Source: an uncultured Candidatus Saccharibacteria bacterium
GTDB lineage: Bacteria > Patescibacteriota > Minisyncoccia > Phycocordibacterales > JACOZG01
Direction of reading: 5' to 3'
Length of the DNA: 51,251 bases
Assembly (NCBI GenBank): GCA_964546425.1
Contig: CAZJJW010000001.1
Coordinates: 1-51,251 of the forward strand
A program made the translations under genes and the position numbers. This document shows positions 23,971 through 39,001 of the stretch, piece by piece (position 1 is the first letter of the stretch; the number at the start of each line of letters is the position of its first letter). Under the pieces are notes generated by a model that saw only the letters and a list, made by a program, of their open reading frames with translations, was not told where the DNA came from and did not search any database.

Positions 23971-24003
23971 ACATCTCTCGGGTTTCGAGTTTATAATATA
24001 ATT

Positions 24004-25815
24004 ATGTGGCCCTTTAAGAAAAAAGAGAAAGCGGACGCGGCGGTGGCGCCCGTTTTCCCCCAAGATATTTATCAAATGGGCGTGCTGGAACTGCGCGATG
24101 TGATTGCGCCGTCGGCGCTTAAAATCACCCCGCGAATTTTAAACTTGGGCGACAAGGTGGCGCGGACTTTCTATGTCATCTCTTATCCGCGGATTCTCGC
24201 CGGTGATTGGCTCTCGCCGGTGATCAATCTCGACAAAGTTTTCGACATCTCGATTCTGATTCACCCGATTGACAGCTCGGTCGCCTTGCGCCAACTGGAG
24301 AAAAAGGTGGCCGAAGTTCAGAGTCAGATCAGCTTGAAAGAAGAAAAGGGCTTGGTCCGCGATCCGATTCTCGACACCGCTTATGAAGATATCGAGACGT
24401 TGCGCGACTCACTCCAGCAAGCGCGTGAAAAAATTTTTGATGTCGGTCTCTATATCACGATTTACGCCGACAACGAGGATGAATTGAACAAAACCGAGAT
24501 TGAGATCAAGGGCATTCTCGATGCCAAGTTGGTCTACTTGAAGCCGGCGCTCTTCCAACAAGCCGAGGGCTTCAAGAGTGTCTTGCCGGTGGCCGAAGAT
24601 TTGCTTAATGTCAATTACAAACTCAATTCCTCGCCGCTCTCGAGCGTTTTCCCTTTCGTCTCGTTCGATCTGACTTCCAACAAGGGGATTCTCTACGGCA
24701 TCAACCGCCACAATTCCAGTTTGGTGCTGTTTGATCGTTTCTCGCTCGAGAACTACAACTCGGTCGTCTTCGCCAAATCCGGCTCCGGCAAATCCTACGC
24801 CGCCAAACTGGAAATCTTGCGCAGTTTGATGTTTGACACCGATGTGCTGGTGATCGATCCGGAGCGCGAATACGAATTCTTGTCCGAAGCGGTCGGCGGG
24901 CGCTACTTCAACATCTCGCTGACCTCCGAACACCATATCAATCCGTTTGATCTACCGTTCCCGCGCGAGGATGAGTCGCCGGCGGATGTCTTGCGCTCGA
25001 ATATCATCAACTTGGTCGGCTTGTTTCGCTTGATGTTGGGCGGCTTGACGCCGGAAGAAGACGCGATTATTGACCGCGCCATTACCGAAACTTACGCGCT
25101 TAAAGATATTACCGCCGATAGTAACTTCGGGGGTAAACCGCCGCCACTCCTCTCGGATTTGGAGTTGGTGTTGGTCGGGATGGAGGGCGGCGAGCAGTTG
25201 GCGCAACGTTTGCTCAAATACACGCGCGGCACTTGGGCCGGTTTCTTAAACAAGCCGACCAATGTTGATATCAACAAGAAATTCATCGTCTTTTCGGTCC
25301 GCGATATGGAAGATGAACTGAAGCCGGTGGCGATGTATATCGTGATGCACAATATTTGGAACGCCATCCGCCGCAATTTGAAAAAGCGCTTGCTCGTCAT
25401 TGACGAGGCCTGGTGGATGATGAAATCCAAAGACACCGCCTCGTTCTTGTTTTCGCTGGTTAAAAGGGGAAGAAAATACTATTTGGGCGTGGCCACGATT
25501 ACTCAAGACGTGGGCGACTTCTTAAAGTCAGAATACGGTTTGCCGATTATTACTAATTCCTCGATTCAATTATTACTCAAACAATCGCCGGCTTCGATTG
25601 AGATGGTCCAGCAAACTTTCCAACTGACCGACGAGGAAAAATACTTGCTTTTGGAATCGGCGGTCGGCGAGGGCATCTTCTTCGCCGGTTTGAAGCACGT
25701 GGCGGTGAAAATCATCGCCTCTTACACCGAAGATCAAATTATCACCTCCGATCCGTCGCAGATTCTGGCGATTAAGAAGGCGAAGGAGGAATTAGAAGCC
25801 GTTGGGCCGCAATAA
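24004..25815 (+). CDS. VirB4/TraC/PrgJ-type T4SS ATPase
   Basis: N-domain ...IAPSALKITPRILNLGDKVARTFYVISYPRILAGDWLSPVI.... Walker A FAKSGSGKSY, Walker B LLVIDEAWWMM. 603 aa. Confidence 0.85.
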   Translation: MWPFKKKEKADAAVAPVFPQDIYQMGVLELRDVIAPSALKITPRILNLGDKVARTFYVISYPRILAGDWLSPVINLDKVFDISILIHPIDSSVALRQLEKKVAEVQSQISLKEEKGLVRDPILDTAYEDIETLRDSLQQAREKIFDVGLYITIYADNEDELNKTEIEIKGILDAKLVYLKPALFQQAEGFKSVLPVAEDLLNVNYKLNSSPLSSVFPFVSFDLTSNKGILYGINRHNSSLVLFDRFSLENYNSVVFAKSGSGKSYAAKLEILRSLMFDTDVLVIDPEREYEFLSEAVGGRYFNISLTSEHHINPFDLPFPREDESPADVLRSNIINLVGLFRLMLGGLTPEEDAIIDRAITETYALKDITADSNFGGKPPPLLSDLELVLVGMEGGEQLAQRLLKYTRGTWAGFLNKPTNVDINKKFIVFSVRDMEDELKPVAMYIVMHNIWNAIRRNLKKRLLVIDEAWWMMKSKDTASFLFSLVKRGRKYYLGVATITQDVGDFLKSEYGLPIITNSSIQLLLKQSPASIEMVQQTFQLTDEEKYLLLESAVGEGIFFAGLKHVAVKIIASYTEDQIITSDPSQILAIKKAKEELEAVGPQ

Positions 25816-25817
25816 TT

Positions 25818-26195
25818 ATGGCCGAAGCAAAGAAAGCGAAAATGGGCTGGTTGGGTGGCGGGGTGGCCATTGGGTTGGCCGCGATGGTTGACCTGGTCAA
25901 ACTCCTGCTCTACTTCATCCTGATCGGCTTTGTGGTAAACTGGATTATCAGTTTTATGTTTTTGCTGGCCTTCGCGATTTGGCTGACGCTCAAACACGCG
26001 ATGACCCTACCACGGGGGATTACCCTGCTCGGAGCCGTGGTCTACAGCTTAGTCCCGTTTGCCATGACCGGCACGGTGGCGGGGATGGTCGCGAGGATTA
26101 TTGCCGGAGATAAGTTAGCGGTGGCGATACCGGGCGGCAAAGCCGCCCCGAAACCGTCCCGGCTGCGGTTCGGTCATGTTTCTTACGAAGGATAG
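25818..26195 (+). CDS. Small polytopic membrane protein (T4SS operon)
   Basis: 3-4 hydrophobic helices. Starts 2 nt after the VirB4 stop. Confidence 0.5.
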   Translation: MAEAKKAKMGWLGGGVAIGLAAMVDLVKLLLYFILIGFVVNWIISFMFLLAFAIWLTLKHAMTLPRGITLLGAVVYSLVPFAMTGTVAGMVARIIAGDKLAVAIPGGKAAPKPSRLRFGHVSYEG

Positions 26196-26212
26196 TGAGC
26201 AAACTATCGATT

Positions 26213-26437
26213 TTATAACAACCTCCTAAACTCATTCTCCGACAAACCGGCTTGTTTAATAATTGATTTGTATAACCAACGTGGTAGATCGCCCGGATGC
26301 ATTGGGATGGTGAGGTGGCGTTTGGTGGTAGGATGATAAAAAGCTTTGTGGCTACCGCTCTGCTCGTCTTCCAGAAAGCCCGCCCGCAAGATGGCTTTGG
26401 CCATCTGGCGAGCGGTTAAGTTTGGCAAACGAGTCAT
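26213..26437 (-). CDS. hicA: HicA-family mRNA interferase toxin
   Basis: RQMAKAILRAGFLEDEQSGSHKAFYHP...LTIPMHPGDLPRWLYKSIIKQAGLS is the HicA/YcfA pattern. Confidence 0.75.
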   Translation of the reverse strand: MTRLPNLTARQMAKAILRAGFLEDEQSGSHKAFYHPTTKRHLTIPMHPGDLPRWLYKSIIKQAGLSENEFRRLL

Positions 26438-26685
26438 GCCGGCTGGGGAAGGGGAATTTGGATAATAACCACGCTGGGCAAAGAAGATTCCACCGGAACC
26501 GTTTCGCCATGCTTGAGCATTGAGCGCAAATGAAGCTGAATCGCTTCATGGGCATTGGTGATAGCCTCCTCGGTGGTCCGACCACGAGAGAAACAGCCCG
26601 GCAAAACCGGAACCTCGACCCAGTAACCGGACTCCTCGCCCGCTTCGTTGGGATGGATAATCACACTATATGTACTGGTACGCAT
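26434..26685 (-). CDS. hicB: HicB-family antitoxin (UPF0150 core only)
   Basis: YSVIIHPNEAGEESGYWVEVPVLPGCFSRGRTTEEAITNAHEAIQLHL. Overlaps hicA by 4 nt. Confidence 0.75.
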   Translation of the reverse strand: MRTSTYSVIIHPNEAGEESGYWVEVPVLPGCFSRGRTTEEAITNAHEAIQLHLRSMLKHGETVPVESSLPSVVIIQIPLPQPA

Positions 26686-26723
26686 AGCCTACAGATTACC
26701 ATAGTTGTGGTAAAATAAAAGGC

Positions 26724-27467
26724 ATGAAATTGGCGACGTTGATAATTGCCCTGACCCTAGCTGGCACCGCCTTGGCCCAAACGCCGACCGGTACGGTTGA
26801 TCTCTTGTGGCAAGCTAATACTTACACGCCGCCGTGGTACCGCGGCCACAGTTTGCCTACCGCCGGTAGCGTGGTCAAAGTCGTCGCCTTGCCGCATATT
26901 AAGGTTGGCGGAGGCCTGCCTGCGCAGGCAGGCGAAGCCTCGGCGCGAGATCTCATTTTCCGGTGGCAGAAGGATGGCCGCGATGTGCCAAGTGTCTCCG
27001 GCGCCGGGCAAGACACACTCTCTTACATTGTTGACAGCGGTGGCAATACGATTGCCGTGGCCGTGCTTAATCGGACCGGAACGCTCTTGGCCGCCCGGCG
27101 CCTAACGCTCCTTGCCAGCGAGCCGAAAGTGGTGCTTTATGAAGAGGACCCGCTGGCCGGCACGGCTTATTGGCAAGCGGTGGCGACCACCACCTTGCTC
27201 GCGGAACCTGAACTGACGGTGCGCGCCGAGCCGTACTTCTTCACTCGGGCGGCAGTCGAAGCCGGGCGCTTAAATTACGAGTGGAAATTAAACGGCAAAA
27301 AGATTATCACCGACGCCGCCAACACTCAATTACTCACCTTCGCCGCGCCGGCCGAAGGCGGGGGGGAGAATACCATTGAGCTAGCCGTCAGTAATTTAGC
27401 CAACGCGCTGCAGAGCGCCAAAACCAAATTGCTACTTAAATTTAATCAGCAAAATTTTAGTTTTTGA
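26724..27467 (+). CDS. Secreted hypothetical protein (T4SS operon)
   Basis: Signal peptide MKLATLIIALTLAGTALAQ. Beta-rich composition. Carries a REP-A-derived insert. Confidence 0.5.
   Translation: MKLATLIIALTLAGTALAQTPTGTVDLLWQANTYTPPWYRGHSLPTAGSVVKVVALPHIKVGGGLPAQAGEASARDLIFRWQKDGRDVPSVSGAGQDTLSYIVDSGGNTIAVAVLNRTGTLLAARRLTLLASEPKVVLYEEDPLAGTAYWQAVATTTLLAEPELTVRAEPYFFTRAAVEAGRLNYEWKLNGKKIITDAANTQLLTFAAPAEGGGENTIELAVSNLANALQSAKTKLLLKFNQQNFSF
26908..26944. repeat. REP family A variant split by a nested 18-nt palindromic insert
   Basis: GCGGAGGC + CTGCCTGCGCAGGCAGGC + GAA + GCCTCGGC. Positions 26914-26933 form a perfect 20-nt palindrome, GCCTGCCTGC/GCAGGCAGGC. Confidence 0.6.
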
Positions 27468-27468
27468 G

Positions 27469-27882
27469 ATGAAAATATACCTTGCTTTAATCTTGTTTTC
27501 TCTATCATGGTTTACGCCGTGGGTATTAGCGGCCGACTGTACCAACTCCGGCGGCAATACGGTGTGTGTCTTAGAGCCGTCCATTCCAGAAACTCCACAA
27601 GTTGAAGACTTTGGTTCGTATCTGGGTAAACTCTTCAACAAAATAATCACCGCGGCGGCCATTTTGGCGGTACTGGCCATTGCCTGGTTTGGCTTCCAAT
27701 ATATGTTCAGCAACATTCCGGGCTTGAAATTGGAAAGTAAAAATAGAATCTGGGGCGCCGTCGGGGGTTTGATTCTAATCTTAGCCGCTTACATAATTCT
27801 AAAAGAGATCAACCCCCAGATTACCGAGAATATCGGGGGCTTGTTTAAAGATATTATCAAACCACTCCAAACACAGCCATGA
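27469..27882 (+). CDS. T4SS pilin-like protein (VirB2/TrbC-like: signal peptide plus two TM helices)
   Basis: Signal peptide MKIYLALILFSLSWFTPWVLA. Helices ITAAAILAVLAIAWFGFQYMF and IWGAVGGLILILAAYIIL, separated by a short loop. Confidence 0.55.
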   Translation: MKIYLALILFSLSWFTPWVLAADCTNSGGNTVCVLEPSIPETPQVEDFGSYLGKLFNKIITAAAILAVLAIAWFGFQYMFSNIPGLKLESKNRIWGAVGGLILILAAYIILKEINPQITENIGGLFKDIIKPLQTQP

Positions 27883-29129
27883 ACAAATTTATTATAATTC
27901 TAGTGGTGGTTGGATTCGTCATTATTGGCGGAGTGGCTTGGTGGTTTATTTTACCAACGCGCCAAGCACCCTTGCCCGCTCCAACCGAGACCGCCGAGCC
28001 GCTTTTTCCGACTGGCGGGGCGGTCAGCCCGCCGGCCAGTGAAGCGACCGAGCCAGCGCCGCCGGCGATTCCGGGTCAAAGTTTACCAGTCAAACAAATT
28101 TCGAAAAAGGCCGTCGCCGGGATGTTTGTCGCCGGCACCACCGCCACTAGTTCGGTGATTTACCTCGAGCGAGCGACCGGCCATGTCTACGTTTTGCCCC
28201 ACGACGGGAGCGAGGCCGCGCGCCTGTCCCAAACCACGATTCCCAAAATTGTCACTGTGGTGGGCGGAAAAACCGCTTCCAGTATCAAAGTTTTAGCTCA
28301 ATATTTGAAAGATGGTCGCCGCCAGAACTTCTTGGCTAATTTGCGGGTGGCCTCTACCACACCGGGTGAGAGCTTCGCCACCAATGCCAGCGAGAGTCCG
28401 GTCGGCGAGCTCTCCGGTTCACTGCTTGACGCCAATATTGAACAAGTAGTTTTCTCTCCGGTTCAAGACAAAATTTTCCACTTAGCCAACTCGAGTAGCG
28501 GCGCGGTTGGCACGATTTTTGATCCCATCACCAAAAGTCAAATTATCATTTTCTCTTCGCCGTTAAATGAGTGGCTTATTGGTTGGCCGGCCACCAGTAC
28601 GATTGCTCTCCTTGCCAAACCATCGGCTGAAACGGTCGGCTTCCTTTACTTGCTCGATGTGAAAACCAAAAAGTCGCGATTGGTTGTGTCGGGCGTTAAT
28701 GGGTTAACCACCCTCGTTAATAAAGCGGGGGACAAAATTTTGCTTAGCGGCATCGCGAATGGGCAATTAGCTTTTGGTTGGTATGATCTCGGACGACAAG
28801 CGTTCTCCGCCCTGCCGGTGAAAACTTTGACTGACAAGTGTGTCTGGGGCCGCGACAGTGCCGCGGTTTATTGCGGCGTGCCGACCACGCTTCCAGCCGG
28901 ACCATACCCGGATCACTGGTACTCGGGCGAAACCAGTTTCACCGACAATCTTTGGAAAATAAATATCCTGACCGGTCAGGCGCAAATCATTTTTAACCCC
29001 GAACTTAGCAATTTGGGCGAAGCGCTCGACGCTTATCAACTTTTGCTGACCAACGACGAAACAACGTTGTATTTTATCAACAAATACGATTCTACTTTGT
29101 GGTCGCTTGATTTAAGGCCGGTGTTTTAA
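27879..29129 (+). CDS. N-anchored hypothetical protein with Pro/Ala/Thr linker and beta-rich domain
   Basis: ATGA overlap with the pilin gene. TM segment FIIILVVVGFVIIGGVAWWFIL. Linker PAPTETAEPLFPTGGAVSPPASEATEPAPPAIPG. Confidence 0.5.
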   Translation: MNKFIIILVVVGFVIIGGVAWWFILPTRQAPLPAPTETAEPLFPTGGAVSPPASEATEPAPPAIPGQSLPVKQISKKAVAGMFVAGTTATSSVIYLERATGHVYVLPHDGSEAARLSQTTIPKIVTVVGGKTASSIKVLAQYLKDGRRQNFLANLRVASTTPGESFATNASESPVGELSGSLLDANIEQVVFSPVQDKIFHLANSSSGAVGTIFDPITKSQIIIFSSPLNEWLIGWPATSTIALLAKPSAETVGFLYLLDVKTKKSRLVVSGVNGLTTLVNKAGDKILLSGIANGQLAFGWYDLGRQAFSALPVKTLTDKCVWGRDSAAVYCGVPTTLPAGPYPDHWYSGETSFTDNLWKINILTGQAQIIFNPELSNLGEALDAYQLLLTNDETTLYFINKYDSTLWSLDLRPVF

Positions 29130-29835
29130 ACCGGCGGAAAAGGGATTCGGCCACAATCGTAAAGAGATTGCTGGTAATCCAATAGACGGCCACCGCCGAG
29201 GGCAAGCTAAGGGAGAAAAAAACCACTAAGACCGGCAAGACATAACGGACTTGGATATTCATGCTCCGGGCTAAATCTTCCTGGAACGAGCGCTCGGTTT
29301 TGGCCGGATTGGGGCTGGGCGGCGGCGGCATCATCAGCTGGGCTTGGATCATTTGAGTCAACCCGGCCAAGAGCGCCAGAATGTAACTTTTGGCCGTCAG
29401 ATCAAAAATCCCAAAGAAAAGCATGTCCACCGCCGGCGGCGCCACCACGAAAGAATAAAGGGCGGTTGGGTCAAAATTAAACCCACTCTGGAAAACGGCG
29501 TAAAGCGCGATAATGATCGGCAATTGAATAAAGATCGTCAGACCGCCCAGGGGATTGACCCGGTGCTCGCGGTACAGATTCATCAATTGTCGCGCTTGCT
29601 CGGCCTTATCGTCTTGGTGCTTGGCTTTGAGCTCTTTAATGAGCGGCTCAAGCGCCTTCATCTTGGCTTGAGTGCGAAGCATCTGCCACTGAAGCGGCAA
29701 GAGTAAAAATTTAACCGCCACCGTAAGCGCGACAATCGCTAAACCAATATCATGCCCGGGCAAAAGCGCGCTTAGAAAGACTAGCGCGTTGTAAAGGGGA
29801 AGAAAAAAGATCTGATGGAAAAATACTTTCACCAT
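29092..29835 (-). CDS. yidC: YidC/Oxa1-family membrane protein insertase
   Basis: ...GLAIVALTVAVKFLLLPL..., MKALEPLIKELKAKH, NPLGG..IFIQLPIIIALY. Confidence 0.85.
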   Translation of the reverse strand: MVKVFFHQIFFLPLYNALVFLSALLPGHDIGLAIVALTVAVKFLLLPLQWQMLRTQAKMKALEPLIKELKAKHQDDKAEQARQLMNLYREHRVNPLGGLTIFIQLPIIIALYAVFQSGFNFDPTALYSFVVAPPAVDMLFFGIFDLTAKSYILALLAGLTQMIQAQLMMPPPPSPNPAKTERSFQEDLARSMNIQVRYVLPVLVVFFSLSLPSAVAVYWITSNLFTIVAESLFRRFKTPALNQATTK

Positions 29836-30107
29836 CAGATGATTTTAGCCCGTTTGAGCAAAAAAACAAGTTGTTGCTCGAGCTCTGGAAAGCTAAGCTC
29901 GGCAGCGCCCTTGGTAAAGAAAATGAAGGTGTCGTAATGCTTGGGTGAGCTCGCTTGGTGCCGGCGGATAATGTGGCGGGCCCGGCGCTTGAGCTTATTT
30001 CGGGTCACGGCCAAGCGGGCCACTTTAGCCGAGACCACCAGAACGAACCGCCCCGCCGCGGTGGCGGGCAAGCCCGACCCTTTGACCAACTTGAGCGAGG
30101 CCTGCAT
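29835..30107 (-). CDS. rnpA: Ribonuclease P protein component (short, 90 aa)
   Basis: ORF 29835..30293 trimmed to ATG 30107. FVLVVSAKVARLAVTRNKLKRRARHIIR is the RnpA RNR-like motif. Sits directly downstream of rpmH. Confidence 0.7.
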   Translation of the reverse strand: MQASLKLVKGSGLPATAAGRFVLVVSAKVARLAVTRNKLKRRARHIIRRHQASSPKHYDTFIFFTKGAAELSFPELEQQLVFLLKRAKII

Positions 30108-30109
30108 TG

Positions 30110-30244
30110 TTAAACGGTGAGCCGCCGCCGGCCCTTCTGCCGTCTCGCTTTTAACACCCTCCGCCCGGCTTTGGTGCGGCTTCGGGCCAAGAAACCGTGC
30201 GTCCGGCCCCGTTTTCGCTTTTTGGGTTGGTAAGTTTGTGACAT
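30110..30244 (-). CDS. rpmH: 50S ribosomal protein L34 (44 aa; not in the ORF track)
   Basis: Hand translation of the minus strand gives [44 protein letters not shown], the canonical L34 sequence pattern. Confidence 0.9.
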
Positions 30245-30269
30245 AAAACCATCCTAACACGGCTGGCGG

Positions 30270-30322
30270 GAGTAATCCACTTGTTATCAACACAATTACA
30301 ACACAGACGCTGTTTGATAATC
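30270..30322. repeat. 53-bp direct repeat, copy 1 (rpmH-proximal)
   Basis: GAGTAATCCACTTGTTATCAACACAATTACAACACAGACGCTGTTTGATAATC, identical to 31713-31765. Looser similarity (CCAA.GG..TATAAT) continues about 20 nt further. Confidence 0.95.
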
Positions 30323-30340
30323 CGGACCAAAGGTATAATT

Positions 30341-31033
30341 TTAGTAAATGTAGGTGGTGATACTGGCTTCTGCTATGTCTTTCATTTTCTCAAATAATTC
30401 GCGTTGCTTCCATTCTTTTTCTCGGAAAAACATCGAGACCGGAGAATAATTATCTTGTTTATGGACAAAAATGCGGTTTAGTGGATAAAACTCGTTCATC
30501 GTAATAACTCTATCCCTAATTGATGAACCATCGGCAAAATCGTCTCCCCAGCCAAAGCAAACAAATGGTGTTATTTTCTCGTATTGCAGTGTTGCTCTCA
30601 CTCCGATGAGATTTTTGCCTAGCCTCTCGATAGCATTCCCCATTGATTGCTTTTTCTTGCCTTCCGCAATGCGCTTGCTGTTAGTGCCCTGGTGTTTCAT
30701 CTCAACGGCGAGAGCAATTCTGCGGTAATTATCGTCCGCTTTCTTTCGTAACACCAAAATACCGCCATCGGGTTTGATATAAGAGTCTTCTTTTGTGAGA
30801 GCTGAAAACTCTGATCTTTTGTCGTAGGTCTTGATAATACCAATTAACTCGGCTAGTTTAATTGATTTTACATAATCAAGATAGTAACCCAAACTGGCGA
30901 GATTGAAGCGGCTATTTAGGTGTGCAATGACCCTAGCCATTACGATGGCGATTTTCTTGTCATCGCCCTTGGACAGAGTATTCTTAGGCGTGTGCTGGCT
31001 TATGTTTTGCCGTAAAAAGTTGCTGTTGCTCAT
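30341..31033 (-). CDS. EcoRI-family type II restriction endonuclease
   Basis: IKPDGGILVL...ALAVEMKHQG...GNAIERLGKNL parallels the EcoRI blocks IKPDGGIVEV / EAKHQG / GNAIERSHKN (PD...E.K active site). AT-rich. Confidence 0.7.
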   Translation of the reverse strand: MSNSNFLRQNISQHTPKNTLSKGDDKKIAIVMARVIAHLNSRFNLASLGYYLDYVKSIKLAELIGIIKTYDKRSEFSALTKEDSYIKPDGGILVLRKKADDNYRRIALAVEMKHQGTNSKRIAEGKKKQSMGNAIERLGKNLIGVRATLQYEKITPFVCFGWGDDFADGSSIRDRVITMNEFYPLNRIFVHKQDNYSPVSMFFREKEWKQRELFEKMKDIAEASITTYIY

Positions 31034-31655
31034 GTTCTGGGTTTCTCACAAAATAATGACCGTCTAGCTTATCCAGATTAAATATCAGCACTTCGCTGTG
31101 GAATAAAATATCCTTGAACACGTCCTTGGGAAGTGAGACAATGCTGGTAATTGGCGGGTATTTCCCATTTATAAATTTAACCCACCGTTTGCTGTTCTCG
31201 GTCTGATTAAGCCGAAAACCGTAGGGGGTAAACATTGCCATTGGCACTTCTGCGCCAAATAATTCTACCGCCTTTTGGAACCAGATTTCTGGCAGGAGCG
31301 GCCTACCACCATAATGTTCTTGGATATACACCTTAGTCTTGCTGTCAATATTAAACGGTGGGTTCATAATTACAAGGGCGGGCGTCTCGAGCTCGCCTTT
31401 TTCTACCTCTAGGTAGTTCTTGACTTTAGTGTAAGGAAAGCCCTGATTTTCAATGTCTATTCCCAATACTCTATAGCCATTCTTCTTCCATGGCCTCAAT
31501 AACGACCCGCGGCCAACGCAAGGATCAAGAATAAGGCCGTTTTCTTTAATCTGCTCATTGAGGATGCTGTACAAAAACTCGCTTACGTGGTCTGGGGTAT
31601 AGACCGTAGCTCCTTTTTCGTTCTCATAAAAATTATTGCGGTCTACTCGATACAT
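30984..31655 (-). CDS. N6-adenine DNA methyltransferase (gamma-type, small)
   Basis: ORF 30984..31736 trimmed to ATG 31655. The N-terminal MLITSGLL... is read out of the direct repeat. Motif I ILDPCVGRGSLL, motif IV MNPPF. Confidence 0.8.
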   Translation of the reverse strand: MYRVDRNNFYENEKGATVYTPDHVSEFLYSILNEQIKENGLILDPCVGRGSLLRPWKKNGYRVLGIDIENQGFPYTKVKNYLEVEKGELETPALVIMNPPFNIDSKTKVYIQEHYGGRPLLPEIWFQKAVELFGAEVPMAMFTPYGFRLNQTENSKRWVKFINGKYPPITSIVSLPKDVFKDILFHSEVLIFNLDKLDGHYFVRNPEHEQQQLFTAKHKPAHA

Positions 31656-31712
31656 AATTAAAGTATAGCAAGTATCAACCCACCTGAATACTCGTGTTGG
31701 GGATAGCAAAAA

Positions 31713-31765
31713 GAGTAATCCACTTGTTATCAACACAATTACAACACAGACGCTGTTTGATAATC
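31713..31765. repeat. 53-bp direct repeat, copy 2 (dnaA-proximal)
   Basis: Identical to 30270-30322. Confidence 0.95.
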
Positions 31766-31793
31766 TATCCCAAGGGCATATAATCTACTCACT

Positions 31794-33149
31794 GTGATTG
31801 AGAACGACCAATTGTGGCAAAGCGCGCTCGCCGAACTCGAGGTGGGCGTTTCCAAAGCCAACTTCGGCACCTGGTTTCGCAACACCAGCGTCGTCAAACA
31901 AGACACCGGCATCATCCATATCGGCGTACCGAACGCTTTTGTCAAAGACTGGCTTGCCAACAAATACCATAAGTCAATTTTGAAATCGCTCCGGGCGCTG
32001 GCGCCGGAAGTGCGGGCCATTGAATACACGATTATTAAATATGACCAGGCCGATAAGGCCAATCGAGTTGATTTGGGAGTAAAATCGCCGTTTGCCAACC
32101 AAATGGAGATCGGCGAACTCTACATTGACAAAGCCGACAACCTAAACCCGCGCTACATCTTCGATTCTTTCGTCGTCGGCTCTTTCAACGAGCTGGCCCA
32201 CGCCGCGGCTCAAGGGGTGGTCAAGAAGCTCGGACGCGTTTACAACCCGTTGTTTGTTTACGGCGGCACCGGCCTGGGTAAAACTCACTTGATTCAGGCG
32301 GTCGGCAATGTGATCAAACACGCCGGCGGCAAAAAGGTTTATTATGTCACCTCCGAGCAGTTTGTCATTGATTACATCAGCGCGGTTCAGAATAATCGGC
32401 CGAACGTTTTTAAGAATAAGTACCGCGACTATGATGTCCTGATTATGGACGATGTCCAATTTCTGTCCAAAAAAGTCCAGTCCCAGGAAGAGTTGTTCCA
32501 TTTATTCAATCATTTTCACGAAAATAACAAACAAATCATCTTTTCTTCCGACAAGCCGCCCAAATACATCACCGACTTGGAAGAACGGTTGCGCTCGCGG
32601 TTTGAGGGGGGAATGATTGTGGATATCGCGCGCCCGGACTATGAATCGCGCCTGGCGATCTTAAAAACCAAGCTGCATAACAGCGCTTTTTATCCCTCAA
32701 ACGAAGTCATTGACTATCTCGCTAACATTATCCAAGACAACATCAGGGAGCTGGAGGGCTCGCTTAACTCCATTGTTTGTCAATCACAATTGAAAAATCG
32801 CAATTTGTCTCTCCCTGAAGTTAAAGTTTTACTCAAGGACTCGATTAGACCCAAGAAGCTGGTCTCGATTAAAAATGTGGCTGGGGTGGTGGCGGAATTC
32901 TATAACATTAATGAAAAGATGCTTTACGAGAAAACGCGCAAGAAAGAAGTGGTTAAACCGCGCCAAGTGATTATGTATCTTTTGCGGGAGGACTTCAACA
33001 GTTCTTACCCTTACATCGGCCAAAAACTCGGCGGCCGCGACCACACCACGGTGATCCACGCTTATGATAAAATTAAGAATGATTTAAAAGGGGATAACTT
33101 GCTTGGCCAGGAAATTGAACAAATTAGAACTTTACTTTACAGTGAATAA
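31794..33149 (+). CDS. dnaA: Chromosomal replication initiator DnaA
   Basis: GTG start 9 nt after TATAAT (31779-31784). Walker A GGTGLGKTHL, Walker B LIMDDVQF, C-terminal DNA-binding GGRDHTTVIHA. Confidence 0.95.
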   Translation: MIENDQLWQSALAELEVGVSKANFGTWFRNTSVVKQDTGIIHIGVPNAFVKDWLANKYHKSILKSLRALAPEVRAIEYTIIKYDQADKANRVDLGVKSPFANQMEIGELYIDKADNLNPRYIFDSFVVGSFNELAHAAAQGVVKKLGRVYNPLFVYGGTGLGKTHLIQAVGNVIKHAGGKKVYYVTSEQFVIDYISAVQNNRPNVFKNKYRDYDVLIMDDVQFLSKKVQSQEELFHLFNHFHENNKQIIFSSDKPPKYITDLEERLRSRFEGGMIVDIARPDYESRLAILKTKLHNSAFYPSNEVIDYLANIIQDNIRELEGSLNSIVCQSQLKNRNLSLPEVKVLLKDSIRPKKLVSIKNVAGVVAEFYNINEKMLYEKTRKKEVVKPRQVIMYLLREDFNSSYPYIGQKLGGRDHTTVIHAYDKIKNDLKGDNLLGQEIEQIRTLLYSE

Positions 33150-33157
33150 TTCTTTCT

Positions 33158-33256
33158 TTACCCACAGTTTATCAAGCGGCCGGCTATTCTGTTATCCCCA
33201 GATCCACCAGGTTAGATATAATAGTAATTTAATTAATACTTAATTATTATAATAAG
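33158..33256. promoter_or_regulatory. Candidate oriC segment (DnaA boxes plus AT-rich unwinding element) in the dnaA-dnaN spacer
   Basis: TTACCCACAGTT at 33158-33169, TTATCCCCA at 33192-33200, GATCCACC at 33201-33208, then an almost pure A/T run GATATAATAGTAATTTAATTAATACTTAATTATTATAATAAG up to the dnaN ATG. Confidence 0.5.
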
Positions 33257-34366
33257 ATGAAAGTTGAATGTCTAAAAGATAAACTCCGTCAAGCGATCGC
33301 GATTGCCGATCGGATTACCGGCAAGAATCTTTCTTTAGCCGCTCTGGGGCATGTTTTCCTGGAGGCCAAAGATCACACGGTGATAGTCAGAACGACCAAT
33401 CTTGATTTGGGCATCGAAATCAACCTCCCCGTTAAAGTGGCCAAAGCGGGTGTCGCGCTAGTGAACAGTGGAGTAATTCATAATTTTCTTAATCATTTGG
33501 CGACTGATGAGGTGGTCAAATTGGAAGTGGTGAACGATAATTTGACGATTTCGACCGAGCATAGCGCCAGCGTCATTAAAGCTTATCCGCCGGACGATTT
33601 CCCCACCATTCCGCGGCTGGGGCAGGCGGCCAGTTTCACTGTGCCGGCCCAAAATCTGGCCAGTGGTTTGCGAGCCACGATCTATGCCGCCTCGCTCTCG
33701 GACATCAAACCCGAAATCGCCAGTGTTTATTTTTATTATGACGAGGAACGACGGCAACATGTTTTTGTGGCCACCGATTCTTTTCGTCTAGCCGAGAAAC
33801 GTCTCACCGGCGGCGCAGCCGCCATTGAGGCCTATAAACTAATCATCCCGATCAAAAATGCGGCGGAAATTTTTCGGGTGTTTGAATCGAGCGCCGCCGA
33901 AGTGATCATTAAACATAGCGCCAACCAAGCGGCGTTTGAAAGCGGCGAACTTTATCTCACCTCGCGCTTGGTCGAGGGCGTCTTCCCGGATTATCGTCAG
34001 GTGGTGCCGTCAAGCGCGCTCTCAAGCGTGGTGGTGCTTAAAAATGATTTGCTGAACGCGCTTAAATTATCGAACGTTTTTTCTGACAAATTAAATCAAA
34101 TTAATCTGCGAGTAATGGCCCAAGACAATGTTTTCGAAATCAATTCCCAAAATAGCGATGTCGGCGAAAGCAGCACCCGCCTGGAAGCGGCCATCCAGGG
34201 TGAAGCGGTTGATATTAGTTTTAATGTCAAATATTTGCTCGACTGTTTGCCGGCGGTGGCGAGCGACAGCGTCCACCTGCAGTTCAACGGCAAAACCCGG
34301 CCGATTTTGGTGTCCGGGGTGGGCGATCCCTCTTTCAGTTATTTAATCATGCCGCTCAATCGCTAA
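33257..34366 (+). CDS. dnaN: DNA polymerase III beta sliding clamp
   Basis: 369 aa, located immediately after dnaA. Typical three-domain length. Blocks ATDSFRLAE and LIMPL. Confidence 0.9.
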   Translation: MKVECLKDKLRQAIAIADRITGKNLSLAALGHVFLEAKDHTVIVRTTNLDLGIEINLPVKVAKAGVALVNSGVIHNFLNHLATDEVVKLEVVNDNLTISTEHSASVIKAYPPDDFPTIPRLGQAASFTVPAQNLASGLRATIYAASLSDIKPEIASVYFYYDEERRQHVFVATDSFRLAEKRLTGGAAAIEAYKLIIPIKNAAEIFRVFESSAAEVIIKHSANQAAFESGELYLTSRLVEGVFPDYRQVVPSSALSSVVVLKNDLLNALKLSNVFSDKLNQINLRVMAQDNVFEINSQNSDVGESSTRLEAAIQGEAVDISFNVKYLLDCLPAVASDSVHLQFNGKTRPILVSGVGDPSFSYLIMPLNR

Positions 34367-37119: not shown

Positions 37120-37380
37120 ATGAGGAAATCCGCCTACACTTTTCGGGTAATGATTGAGCCGGACGGTAAAGGGTATCACGGCTTTGTCCCGCTCTTGCCG
37201 GGGGTCCATACTTACGGTAAAAATTTTAAGGAGACCAGAAACCGCCTTGACGAAGCCGTTAAGTGCCACCTTCAAGGTTTACTCAAAGATCGAGAGGCTA
37301 TCCCCCAAGAGTCCGAGGCTCTCGAGATTGTTACCACCATTTCTGATCGCGAGCTTGGTATGGCGAGCCGCTATGCCTAA
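37120..37380 (+). CDS. hicB: HicB-family antitoxin (UPF0150 core)
   Basis: YTFRVMIEPDGKGYHGFVPLLPGVHTYGKNFKETRNRLDEAVKCHLQGL. Confidence 0.7.
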   Translation: MRKSAYTFRVMIEPDGKGYHGFVPLLPGVHTYGKNFKETRNRLDEAVKCHLQGLLKDREAIPQESEALEIVTTISDRELGMASRYA

Positions 37381-37597
37381 ACTGCCGGTCATCAGGACGC
37401 GACAATTGATTGAGGTGCTTCGCAAATTAGGTTTTTACAAACACCACCAGGTTGGTAGCCACGCTCAATTTAAGAATTTTTCGGGTCAGAGAATTACTGT
37501 TATTATTCACAGTCGTGATCAAGTCGGGCGGAAAACCCTGAAGGGAATCATTACCGATTTACATCTGACGGTTGAGGAGTTTATTGGTTTGCTTTAG
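37373..37597 (+). CDS. hicA: HicA-family toxin
   Basis: ORF 37154..37597 trimmed to ATG 37373. RQLIEVLRKLGFYKHHQVGSHAQFKN...ITVIIHSRDQVGRKTLKGIITDLHL. Confidence 0.7.
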   Translation: MPKLPVIRTRQLIEVLRKLGFYKHHQVGSHAQFKNFSGQRITVIIHSRDQVGRKTLKGIITDLHLTVEEFIGLL

Positions 37598-37657: not shown

Positions 37658-37831
37658 ACAACTGAATATGGCCTAAACCTCGCCACTGGCGAGGCATGGC
37701 ATGAAATCGCGACGAACATGGAAAACCCATCATTAGGGCGTTCGTCGCGTTATATCGGGAAACCGGTATAGGACCGCAAGGTCTCCTAGTGGTGGGCTTT
37801 CTGCCGCTAGGGCGTATCAAGCGCGACGGAT
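37658..37831 (+). ncRNA. Candidate structured leader or ncRNA (five consecutive hairpins) upstream of the methyltransferase
   Basis: Hairpins at 37678-37694, 37708-37749 (10-bp stem), 37751-37770 (8 bp, GAAA loop), 37771-37784 (GCAA loop) and 37785-37811 (8 bp). Class unknown. Confidence 0.35.
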
Positions 37832-39001
37832 ATGCCCAAACATCAACTTAAAACCAATGTAATTTATTGCGGAGACAATCTGCAGATGTTAAAAGAAGTC
37901 CCCGATGAGTCGGTGGATTTAATTTACATTGATCCGCCGTTCAACAGTAACCGCAATTACGAGGTCTTTTGGGGAGATGTTCAAGAAAAAAGGGCATTTG
38001 AAGATCGCTTTGGCGACGTCGACGCTTACATCCAATACATGAGACCACGCGTTTTGGAACTTTATCGCGTCCTCAAGCCGACAGGCAGTTTCTATTACCA
38101 CTGCGACTGGTATGCTAGTCATTATGTTAAACTAATGCTGGACCAGATTTTCAACTTTAACAATTTTCAAAATGAGATTGTGTGGGCTTATCGTACCGGC
38201 GGAGCAACAAAGAAAAGATGGGCCAGAAAACACGACACGATTTTCTTTTATACAAAATCGCAAAAATATACTTTTAATTTCCAGCTTGAGCGTATTTACT
38301 ATGGAAAACCGTTCTTTTCTCCGAAGCAAGACGAACAAGGACGATGGTATGCAGATGTTATTGTCAGGGACGTTTGGGACATTCCAGCCGTTATCAATAT
38401 TTCAAAAGAACGTCTCGGTTATCCAACCCAAAAACCACTTGCGTTGCTTGAGAGAATAATTAGTGCCAGTAGCCAGAAAGACGATGTCGTTCTAGATGCT
38501 TTCTGTGGTTGCGGGACCGCTCTGGTAGCTTCTCACAAACTAGGTCGAAAATGGATTGGCATTGATATTTCACCAACAGCGTGCCGTGTCATGGCGCAAC
38601 GGCTCTGGGACGAGTTCAGATTGGAGGAGGGCAAAGATTTTATGCTTAGCGATATGCCACGGAGCGAAGCCGACTTGATGCAACTCCCGCCGTTTGAATT
38701 CCAAAATTGGGCTTGCGTTGCCCTTGGCGCCATACCTAATCGGGTCAAGGTTGGTGATTATGGGATTGACGGCAAGCTTTACCCGATTGAGCGAGAGAAG
38801 GGCAAAAGCGACGAGAAGGGATTGTTTGGCGATTTCCAAACTGCTATTAGGCGAGACGGCCGGAGGAAGGGTTATTTCGTTTCCTTTGATTTCACCGAGG
38901 ACGCTATCAGAGAAATAAAACGTCTCGACAAAGAGGGCCAAATTGAAATTATTCCCATAACCGTTAAGGAATTATTGAAGAAAGAAGAACTTGCCGTATG
39001 A
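37832..39001 (+). CDS. Beta-class DNA methyltransferase (N6-adenine or N4-cytosine) with degenerate C-terminal nuclease-like domain
   Basis: Motif IV IYIDPPF precedes motif I VVLDAFCGCGTALVAS. YPTQKPLALLERII. The C-terminal GDYGIDG...KGYFVSFDFTEDA resembles an Mrr-type domain lacking its central block. Confidence 0.8.
   Translation: MPKHQLKTNVIYCGDNLQMLKEVPDESVDLIYIDPPFNSNRNYEVFWGDVQEKRAFEDRFGDVDAYIQYMRPRVLELYRVLKPTGSFYYHCDWYASHYVKLMLDQIFNFNNFQNEIVWAYRTGGATKKRWARKHDTIFFYTKSQKYTFNFQLERIYYGKPFFSPKQDEQGRWYADVIVRDVWDIPAVINISKERLGYPTQKPLALLERIISASSQKDDVVLDAFCGCGTALVASHKLGRKWIGIDISPTACRVMAQRLWDEFRLEEGKDFMLSDMPRSEADLMQLPPFEFQNWACVALGAIPNRVKVGDYGIDGKLYPIEREKGKSDEKGLFGDFQTAIRRDGRRKGYFVSFDFTEDAIREIKRLDKEGQIEIIPITVKELLKKEELAV

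Follow-up and report, generated by a model that had tools for sequence, protein, structure and literature searches.

A probable insertion with long target duplication: an EcoRI-family restriction-modification cassette between 53-bp direct repeats in the rpmH-dnaA spacer of a patescibacterial genome

A restriction-modification cassette separates rpmH from dnaA

The 51-kb stretch of contig CAZJJW010000001.1 analysed here (the window, to which all coordinates without a locus prefix refer) belongs to a metagenome-assembled genome (MAG). Its DnaA is labelled Candidatus Vogelbacteria by NCBI, and the window matches contig JACOZI010000003.1 of MAG GCA_016181425.1. In the window the normally adjacent, divergently oriented genes rpmH and dnaA are separated by a type II restriction-modification (R-M) cassette, which consists of a gene for an EcoRI-family endonuclease (R) and a gene for an adenine methyltransferase (M) and is bounded by perfect 53-bp direct repeats. 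An earlier note on this DNA, made from the sequence alone, had described such an arrangement, and our analysis confirmed it position by position. The features of the locus are the following.

29092-29835, minus strand: yidC, after rnpA in the rpmH-rnpA-yidC operon
29835-30113, minus strand: rnpA, after rpmH in the same operon
30110-30244, minus strand: rpmH (ribosomal protein L34), first gene of the operon; Pfam Ribosomal_L34, 5.5e-20
30251-30256, minus strand: putative rpmH -10, TAGGAT, assigned by its position in comparison to relatives; not within the repeat, 6 nt ahead of the ATG
30270-30322, no strand: left 53-bp repeat copy, homologous to the single-copy spacer of relatives
30273-30281: DnaA-box word TAATCCACT of the left copy
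30274-30279, minus strand: rpmH -35-like TGGATT of the left copy
30284-30292: DnaA-box word TTATCAACA of the left copy
30314-30319: TTGATA of the left copy
30323-30340: left-copy tail, diverged, CGGACCAAAGGTATAATT; agrees with 31766-31780 at 9/15 positions without gaps
30341-31033, minus strand: R, EcoRI-family type II endonuclease, 230 aa
30984-31655, minus strand: M, minimal gamma-class N6-adenine methyltransferase, 223 aa
31662-31694, minus strand: putative cassette-borne M promoter region, with TATACT at 31662-31667 and CGAGTATTCAGG at 31683-31694
31713-31765, no strand: right 53-bp repeat copy
31716-31724 and 31727-31735: DnaA-box words of the right copy
31757-31762: dnaA -35 TTGATA, in the right copy
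31766-31793, plus strand: native tail, with the -35/-10 spacer, the dnaA -10 TATAAT (31779-31784) and a 9-nt leader
31794-33149, plus strand: dnaA, GTG start, 451 aa; Pfam DnaA_N, Bac_DnaA and Bac_DnaA_C
33257-34366, plus strand: dnaN

A repeat search of the window revealed a 68-nt direct repeat (30270-30337 and 31713-31780, period 1443) with 91% identity overall, the first 53 nt being identical at 53 of 53 positions. Past these 53 nt, 9 of the following 15 positions agree without gaps (P about 0.006), and when a gap of 2 nt is allowed, the similarity reaches a TATAAT on each side (30334-30339 and 31779-31784), in line with the earlier description. The 53-bp repeat is not a tRNA and is present in just two copies within the window; its 32-nt core, searched with up to three mismatches, has two sites there versus none expected from shuffles.

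The insert between the repeats is 1390 bp long and is filled by R and M, the sole open reading frames (ORFs) in it with a family match. It is compositionally foreign: its GC content of 42.2%, compared to a window mean of 50.1% (sd 3.4%), falls in the lowest 0.2% of 1390-nt windows, which agrees with the AT-richness noticed before, and its GC content at third codon positions is 0.47-0.49 versus 0.57-0.71 for the neighbouring genes. A recombinase gene is absent between yidC and dnaN, and between the repeats neither terminal inverted repeats nor an 8-bp duplication nor remnants of a transposase were detected.

R and M are predicted to form an intact type II system

The assignment of R to the EcoRI family is based on several lines of evidence. 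R matches the Pfam family EcoRI (PF02963) with 51.4 bits (gathering cut-off 22, E 1e-13) and the PADLOC model REase_II (1.9e-15). In a phmmer comparison with the EcoRI sequences of the PDB (5e-8) the elements IKPDGG, E.K and GNAIER were aligned, the first two of which lie in IKPDGGI and VEMKHQG of R. The AlphaFold model of R (30 homologues, pLDDT 74) has EcoRI as its only significant PDB match (E 7e-13, TM 0.67/0.60), the next-best structural match having an E value of 8e-3. We found 946 homologues of R, mostly of 230 aa. Among 30 of them D89, E111, K113, G132-A134, E136 and R137 are invariant and the stretch G132-R137 is invariant or nearly so, while the residue preceding GNAIER differs (M, Q or R) among close homologues.

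M matches Pfam N6_Mtase (1.1e-9), and its motif I, DPCVGRGS, is followed by the motif IV NPPF, which is the gamma-class order. The model of M (pLDDT 79) aligns structurally with the catalytic domains of M.TaqI, CamA and type I HsdM (E about 2e-9) and lacks a separate C-terminal recognition domain. The family comprises 412 matches of about 205-226 aa, in which D44-G50, N98, P100 and F101 are invariant. The 3' end of M overlaps the start of R by 50 nt. A longer, GTG-initiated ORF of M running into the repeat is an artefact, the true start being the ATG at 31655. NCBIfam gave no useful assignment. Both proteins have the length conserved in their families and all invariant catalytic positions are present. 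Neither gene is a pseudogene; the possibility of a disrupted R or M, raised in the earlier note, did not materialize.

The PD...E.K motif of EcoRI (D91, E111, K113; PDB 1ERI/1CKQ) and its GNAIER element (residues 140-145) align with R, and the predicted whole-protein fold of R matches EcoRI and nothing else significantly. The partner of R is an NPPF N6-adenine methyltransferase, and M.EcoRI also carries the NPPF motif. Unlike in the EcoRI system, where the R gene precedes the M gene, the order here is M then R with the 50-nt overlap. In addition, R is only about 22-26% identical to EcoRI and shorter (230 aa versus 277 aa), and M, with 223 aa, consists of the catalytic domain only. In EcoRI the GNAIER element reads the inner AATT of the recognition site. 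Because this element is conserved in R, the site of R probably contains an AATT core. An attempt to derive the specificity from palindrome avoidance failed, since none of GAATTC, CAATTG, AAATTT and AATT is depleted.

The repeat corresponds to single-copy host DNA in related genomes

If the cassette was inserted, related genomes should contain an empty site with one repeat copy, and this check, proposed in the earlier note, was positive: eight or nine related Patescibacteria genomes have the same gene order with a single copy and no cassette. All of these genomes are from other species, whose DnaA is 66-80% identical. In five species (L008-L011 and L018; DnaA 66-68%) yidC-rnpA-rpmH immediately precedes dnaA, and the spacers have 106-141 bp and contain neither R nor M. 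In L053 (DnaA 73%) the gene order is kept on both sides (TraG-like...yidC-rnpA-rpmH and dnaA-dnaN-orf-PBP, the last encoding a penicillin-binding protein) of an 85-bp spacer, and in L054 and L055 (DnaA 73%) the spacer has about 117 bp. The nearest empty site, in L052 (DnaA 80%), is a spacer of about 100 nt with one copy homologous to the whole 53-bp block. As counted from the alignment, about 40 of the 53 positions are identical between this block and the window, including positions which are variable in more distant relatives, and the distances from the block to both start codons are as in the window. The rpmH-dnaA spacer of the window has 1549 bp, and subtraction of one 1443-bp period leaves 106 bp.

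The spacers of the relatives have a common order of elements: a DnaA box, which reads TTATCCACA in L009-L011, L018 and L054 and TTATCCCGA in L052; a second box, TAATCCACT; a third, TTATnAACA; a -35 element (TTGAGT or TTGATA); 16-17 nt; (GCA)TATAAT; and dnaA. Of these elements the 53-bp block contains boxes two and three and the dnaA -35. This substantiates the DnaA-box-like words suspected before, since TAATCCACT and TTATCAACA are found in both copies and are aligned with the conserved boxes of the relatives. In the native tail the sequence GCATATAAT is conserved in L053 and L054, and GCATATACT is conserved in L052. At the place of the first and most conserved box of the relatives the window reads GGCTGGCGG (30261-30269); the window lineage had already lost one DnaA box upstream of the duplicated pair.

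Because the repeat is single-copy in the spacers of relatives and missing from the other cassettes described below, we consider it host-native, and at the sequence level it appears as duplicated host target DNA, not as cassette DNA. The earlier proposal that the cassette carries a duplicate of the rpmH/dnaA control region was therefore half right: the control region is duplicated, but the duplicate was probably not brought by the cassette. Rather, the host target would have been duplicated at insertion.

The same cassette is found in other genomic contexts

DNA homology between the window cassette and other copies extends from 30342, in the stop codon of R, to approximately 31694-31712 with 66-72% identity, and the flanks are unrelated. 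Downstream of R, other cassettes show no conservation of the region 30323-30340. Wherever the identity of R is 64% or more and the upstream DNA suffices, M and R are paired with overlapping frames.

The M-R pair is the cargo of four IS1595-family transposons (L019:2782-5718, L023:3316-6405, L026:2347-5634 and L047:5615-8601) with terminal inverted repeats of 20-29 nt. Perfect 8-bp target duplications flank those in L019 (ATAACTAG), L023 (AAGTTATC) and L026 (TCAATTTA). The transposons with R-M cargo are from Patescibacteria and related metagenome contigs. Further, in L024, L028, L043, L045 and L046 the pair is found beside serine recombinases, Replic_Relax relaxases and TraG/TrwB-like ATPases. 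Because the pair resides in IS1595 transposons and beside recombinase, relaxase and TraG-like genes, the cassette is in all likelihood mobile. The window M-R module has 72% nucleotide identity to the cargo of the IS1595 passenger transposons but differs from them in having no transposase, no inverted repeats and a 53-bp instead of an 8-bp duplication. One R-M family would then use at least three vehicles, namely IS1595 transposons, conjugative or integrative elements, and naked repeat-flanked insertion.

A comparable case may exist in L033, where a cassette without a transposase lies between imperfect direct repeats of 32-34 nt, one of them 113 nt upstream of M and the other 26 nt downstream of R (382-403 and 1877-1897, extended to about 370-403 and 1866-1897; GCCGTCAGCC..CCATCCCCCACCA.CCGCCCGA). 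It may represent another insertion with long target duplication, seen on a high-GC contig of only 3 kb. Long flanking direct repeats were rejected as a family-wide trait: most copies are edged by inverted repeats or by nothing, and only L033 is comparable.

The duplicated block is shared by two divergent promoters

The dnaA promoter TTGATA-16 nt-TATAAT (31757-31784) obtained a score of 11/12 and is the only strong call of the promoter scan in this region. Its -35 lies inside the repeat and its -10 beyond the perfect part. Relatives have a -10 hexamer for rpmH that ends at a distance of 6-7 nt from the start codon (TATACT in L009, TACACT in L010 and L011, TATAAT in L018), and L052 has AGTCTA, the reverse complement of TAGACT, on the plus strand at the matching position. 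The corresponding arrangement in the window is TAGGAT, 17 nt and TGGATT (30274-30279), which overlaps the TAATCCACT box; the geometry is the same in L009. Thus, the rpmH promoter would straddle the left repeat boundary. In the right copy CAACAC is found where a -10 is expected downstream of TGGATT, and this copy seems to represent an incomplete rpmH promoter with the -35-like element only. The minus-strand TGTTGTAAT, another candidate for the rpmH -10, is less likely, since in the relatives the -10 sits 6-7 nt before the start codon and since words of the type TGTTnATAA are simply reverse-complemented DnaA boxes.

According to the earlier note, M should be driven by a copy of the rpmH promoter. 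Our comparison speaks against this. In most of the cassettes examined a -10-like hexamer (TATACT, CATTAT, TACACT, TACAAT or TATAGT) ends 6-7 nt before the ATG of M, and an element CGAGTATTC(A/C)(G/C)G is present at about -40 to -29 in six contexts. Because the -10-like hexamer and CGAGTATTCAGG are conserved in position in cassettes from the unrelated contexts L019, L023, L026, L028 and L030, M probably brings its own promoter. Moreover, the putative rpmH -10 is outside the repeat and the right copy is without a -10.

The duplicated dnaA-type promoter at 30334 had been predicted to fire antisense into R. In this left copy TTGATA and TATAAT are 14 nt apart, compared to 16 nt in the native promoter and 17 nt in those relatives with a readable pair (L008, L010, L011 and L018). 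The left tail has 2 nt fewer than the native tail and several substitutions, and the promoter scan called the right copy only. The left tail (30323-30340) is probably a decayed copy of the native -35/-10 spacer and TATAAT. Sigma-70-type promoters do not function with a spacer as short as 14 nt, and antisense transcription into R is therefore unlikely. M and R are oriented like the rpmH-rnpA-yidC operon, and a search of the minus strand from R to rpmH gave no terminator-like site; therefore, read-through would add to rpmH transcription, not oppose it.

As a side observation, -10-like hexamers end 6-9 nt before the starts of rpmH, dnaA and M, and a Shine-Dalgarno sequence is not evident (window 30245-30256, 31656-31667 and 31779-31796; L009-L011, L018 and L052-L054). 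This suggests that leaderless or near-leaderless mRNAs may be used in the clade of the window.

Insertion of the cassette with a long target duplication

Insertion of R-M units with long target duplication was first reported in Helicobacter pylori and surveyed by Furuta, Abe and Kobayashi (2010, NAR 38:2428; PMC2853133). The cases described there have 46-47-bp and approximately 400-bp repeats and are from Haemophilus, Thermus, Helicobacter and other genera. The survey requires R and M homologues within an insert of less than 20 kb, a duplication of more than 30 bp, no other mobile element, and a single copy of the repeat in an insert-free genome that shares both flanks; the repeat should also be neither a multicopy element nor a tRNA or attachment site. 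In the window R (30341-31033) and M (30984-31655) are within an insert of 1390 bp, which has no other mobile-element gene. The target duplication comprises 53 identical bp (68 nt at 91%), and a single repeat copy between both flanks is present in insert-free genomes of other species (L052, L053, L054/L055, L008-L011 and L018). Thus, as judged from these sequence features, the locus appears to belong to the known class, while the target site is new.

The likeness to the published cases (PMC2853133) comprises a short insert with R and M, without a mobility gene and with a GC content unlike that of the host, and direct repeats of more than 30 bp which align to a single copy in insert-free genomes and offer a route to excision or amplification. 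The differences are the host, a member of the Patescibacteria (candidate phyla radiation) and not of the genera listed in the paper; the target, which is the divergent rpmH/dnaA promoter and DnaA-box block beside the origin; the diverged tail at one repeat edge; and the empty sites, which here are in other species and in the paper within species. A literature search on R-M systems in the rpmH-dnaA spacer returned nothing relevant.

Based on these observations we suggest, with a probability of roughly 75%, that a mobile R-M unit was inserted into the rpmH/dnaA spacer with a long target duplication. A unit of 1.37-1.39 kb, consisting of its own promoter, M and R and without a recombinase gene, would have entered the divergent promoter and DnaA-box region, and at least 53 bp, probably about 72 bp, of the target would have been duplicated. 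M would be transcribed from the cassette promoter as a leaderless or near-leaderless mRNA, as its conservation suggests, and R would be co-transcribed with M. The duplicated block would comprise the rpmH -35, two DnaA boxes and the dnaA -35. Combined with the native rpmH -10, the left copy would then keep the rpmH promoter, and combined with the native dnaA -10, the right copy would keep the dnaA promoter with its boxes. Without the duplication, insertion at this site would separate one essential gene from its control elements, and this architecture has probably survived because the duplication preserved both essential promoters. The loss of 2 nt in the left tail would disable the redundant dnaA-type promoter directed antisense to R and M.

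RecA-type recombination within the 53 bp would restore the ancestral spacer exactly and release a 1443-bp circle. Precise excision by repeat recombination, as already envisaged in the earlier note, is thus plausible. Loss of type II R-M systems is opposed by post-segregational killing. Look-ups of the exact DnaA and R proteins yielded only k=31 Logan contigs interrupted at the repeat. In four runs the contigs all end 30 nt into the right repeat, accompanied by a contig of the cassette with 1450 nt (1390 + 2 x 30). Since the cassette branch is present in all four runs, the occupied allele is not a one-off, although contigs of this kind cannot tell occupied alleles from empty alleles or circles.

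This is of interest for several reasons. The locus extends R-M mobility with long target duplication, the mechanism of which is still unexplained, to the candidate phyla radiation. It is a clean example, in which the insert is practically promoter, M and R only. Since the cassette occurs in many other contexts, its two edges can be placed with a precision of a few bases. Furthermore, the duplicated target has a readable function, namely two divergent essential promoters sharing DnaA boxes. A long duplication may allow a selfish element to settle in a place where simple insertion would probably kill the host.

Several points weigh against the proposed insertion with target duplication. A strain-level empty allele was not found, the nearest empty site being that with 80% DnaA identity. 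Insertion in the window rather than deletion in all relatives is favoured by parsimony, composition and cassette mobility only, and the repeat core had 0 matches in a scan of JGI metagenomes. The promoter assignments rely on consensus and position, and in the window GAATTC (18 sites), CAATTG (12) and AATT (412) are not depleted, and neither is AAATTT. The integrated form is predicted from the assembly of a MAG. Furthermore, the identity is 53/53 in the block but suddenly only about 60% in the adjoining 15-19 nt, which a simple staggered cut followed by neutral decay does not predict. The options for this drop are selection against the redundant promoter, gene conversion with edge erosion, an error-prone junction, and re-integration of a circle.

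Alternative explanations

The last of these options leads to the alternative that the present state arose by Campbell-type integration. A 1.44-kb circle with M, R and one dnaA-promoter block, excised earlier in this or a sister lineage, would have been re-integrated by a single crossover within the 53 bp. Such integration is one stage of the 'virus-like life cycle' proposed for repeat-flanked R-M units, and Furuta et al. (PMC2853133) discuss amplification and release via the flanking repeats. It predicts just what is seen, a perfect core and, solely where the left copy faces the cassette, a diverged tail (30323-30340 versus 31766-31784). However, the donor would have to be identical over 53 nt and yet differ by about 40% and an indel in the next 19 nt, which is unlike natural divergence; in L052, for comparison, about 13 of the 53 positions and also the tail are different. 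No circle and no second locus were found. We therefore regard re-integration as unlikely. Since it needs an earlier insertion with long duplication, it extends the explanation preferred above and does not replace it. In the survey (PMC2853133), repeat-flanked R-M units can be amplified through their repeats and a cycle of insertion, amplification and release was proposed, with release and re-infection unproven; the mechanism of the duplication is unknown, and double-strand breakage was suggested.

A chance insertion of the cassette into a spacer already present in tandem, or its site-specific integration by a trans-acting recombinase using the 53 bp as attachment core, is improbable, although both are listed by Furuta et al. 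(PMC2853133) as alternative sources of direct repeats around R-M genes. The repeat boundaries are sharp, and other family members are positioned beside serine recombinases. However, the sequence is single-copy in all eight or nine relatives, and the cassette ends abut the repeats without leftover native DNA, the homology on the M side reaching to about 31712 and the R stop codon lying 18 nt from the left copy. Moreover, serine recombinases do not generate long duplications, no integrase is present in or beside the insert, and the 53-bp repeat is host-native and absent from other cassettes, which is not expected of an attachment core.

At least four related cassettes are IS1595-family cargo, and this raises the question whether an M-R transposon was transposed into the spacer and subsequently lost its transposase and inverted repeats. 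We judge this very improbable. L019, L023 and L026 have inverted repeats, an 8-bp duplication and a transposase, whereas the window has neither the first two nor a transposase remnant, and its cassette edges coincide with repeats of 53 bp, not with the 8-bp duplications of IS1595. The TATCCCC upstream of M in the window, L019 and L023 is loosely like the transposon ends in L023. As candidate end remnants TATCCCC and TATACCTT have the wrong orientation or position, and they were treated as chance matches.

Finally, an assembly artefact, in which the cassette of another replicon or strain sharing the 53 bp was threaded into the chromosome path, is conceivable for a MAG and for k=31 graphs, which cannot separate occupied, empty-plus-circle and mixed states, but it is hardly credible, since identity over 53 bp with a host-specific promoter is not due to chance and therefore implies physical linkage at some point, a 1.4-kb circle without a replication gene cannot persist alone, the same branch structure is found in four independent runs, and the deposited 59-kb contig runs through both junctions.

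Origin context and further observations

The minimum of the cumulative GC skew at about 31.5-35 kb indicates that the cassette site is origin-proximal. The dnaA-dnaN spacer (33150-33256) contains the DnaA-box-like words TTACCCACA (33158) and TTATCCCCA (33192), followed by a 45-nt AT-rich run (approximately 33206-33250), which is probably the unwinding element of oriC. Because this candidate run lies in the dnaA-dnaN spacer, the cassette appears to occupy the box cluster upstream of dnaA rather than the probable unwinding region. For annotation, it may be relevant that two DnaA-box clusters upstream of dnaA could mislead tools for origin prediction.

Two other copies of the cassette are also near dnaA. 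In L030 (933-5528) the distance is about 3 kb (M-R, flippase-like gene, jag, yidC, rpmH region, dnaA), and in L023 (3316-10693) it is about 5-7 kb (transposon, TyrRS, PBP, orf, dnaN). They are from different hosts and were independently inserted. Together with the window, contexts near dnaA make up 3 of about 11, or 2 of 10 if the window is left out; four extra contexts in L043-L047 are not near dnaA. An origin-proximal enrichment of the family is only suggestive. It is tempting to speculate that cassettes of this family prefer the vicinity of dnaA and oriC and that duplicating the core with the DnaA boxes and promoters serves a function as an adaptation, but we consider this unlikely. If true, an addictive R-M unit would be tied to the most indispensable control region at the highest gene dosage, and the DnaA boxes upstream of dnaA would be doubled, possibly changing DnaA autoregulation or the timing of initiation.

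Some minor observations concern the genes around the cassette and in the relatives. In the NCBI annotation of the MAG, DnaA has 415 aa and a later start; the 451-aa form (GTG at 31794) is present on four Logan contigs and aligns with the DnaA proteins of relatives from residue 1. The L052 contig begins inside rpmH, and the codon at the rpmH start is AAC (L052:1-50; NSQTYHPKKRK...) with no ATG, GTG or TTG nearby, which could reflect a sequencing error or a non-canonical start.

Beside yidC, the window (about 24000-29100), L053 (1-2770) and L054 (1-2785) have genes for a TraG/VirB4-type P-loop ATPase and for TrbC-like or type IV secretion system (T4SS) pilin-like proteins, and an ORF of 411-436 aa. 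Because their order is the same in the relatives, these T4SS-like genes represent a conserved neighbourhood and not a genome-specific island. Unlike L053 and L054, the window has an additional HicB/HicA pair in this neighbourhood. On the other side of dnaA, an Rfam LOOT RNA was detected at 37670-37784 on the plus strand (81.7 bits versus a gathering threshold of 46.4). It is flanked by HicB/HicA (about 37150-37597) and by an N6_N4 DNA methyltransferase gene (about 37886-39001), which is followed by a MerR-family gene.

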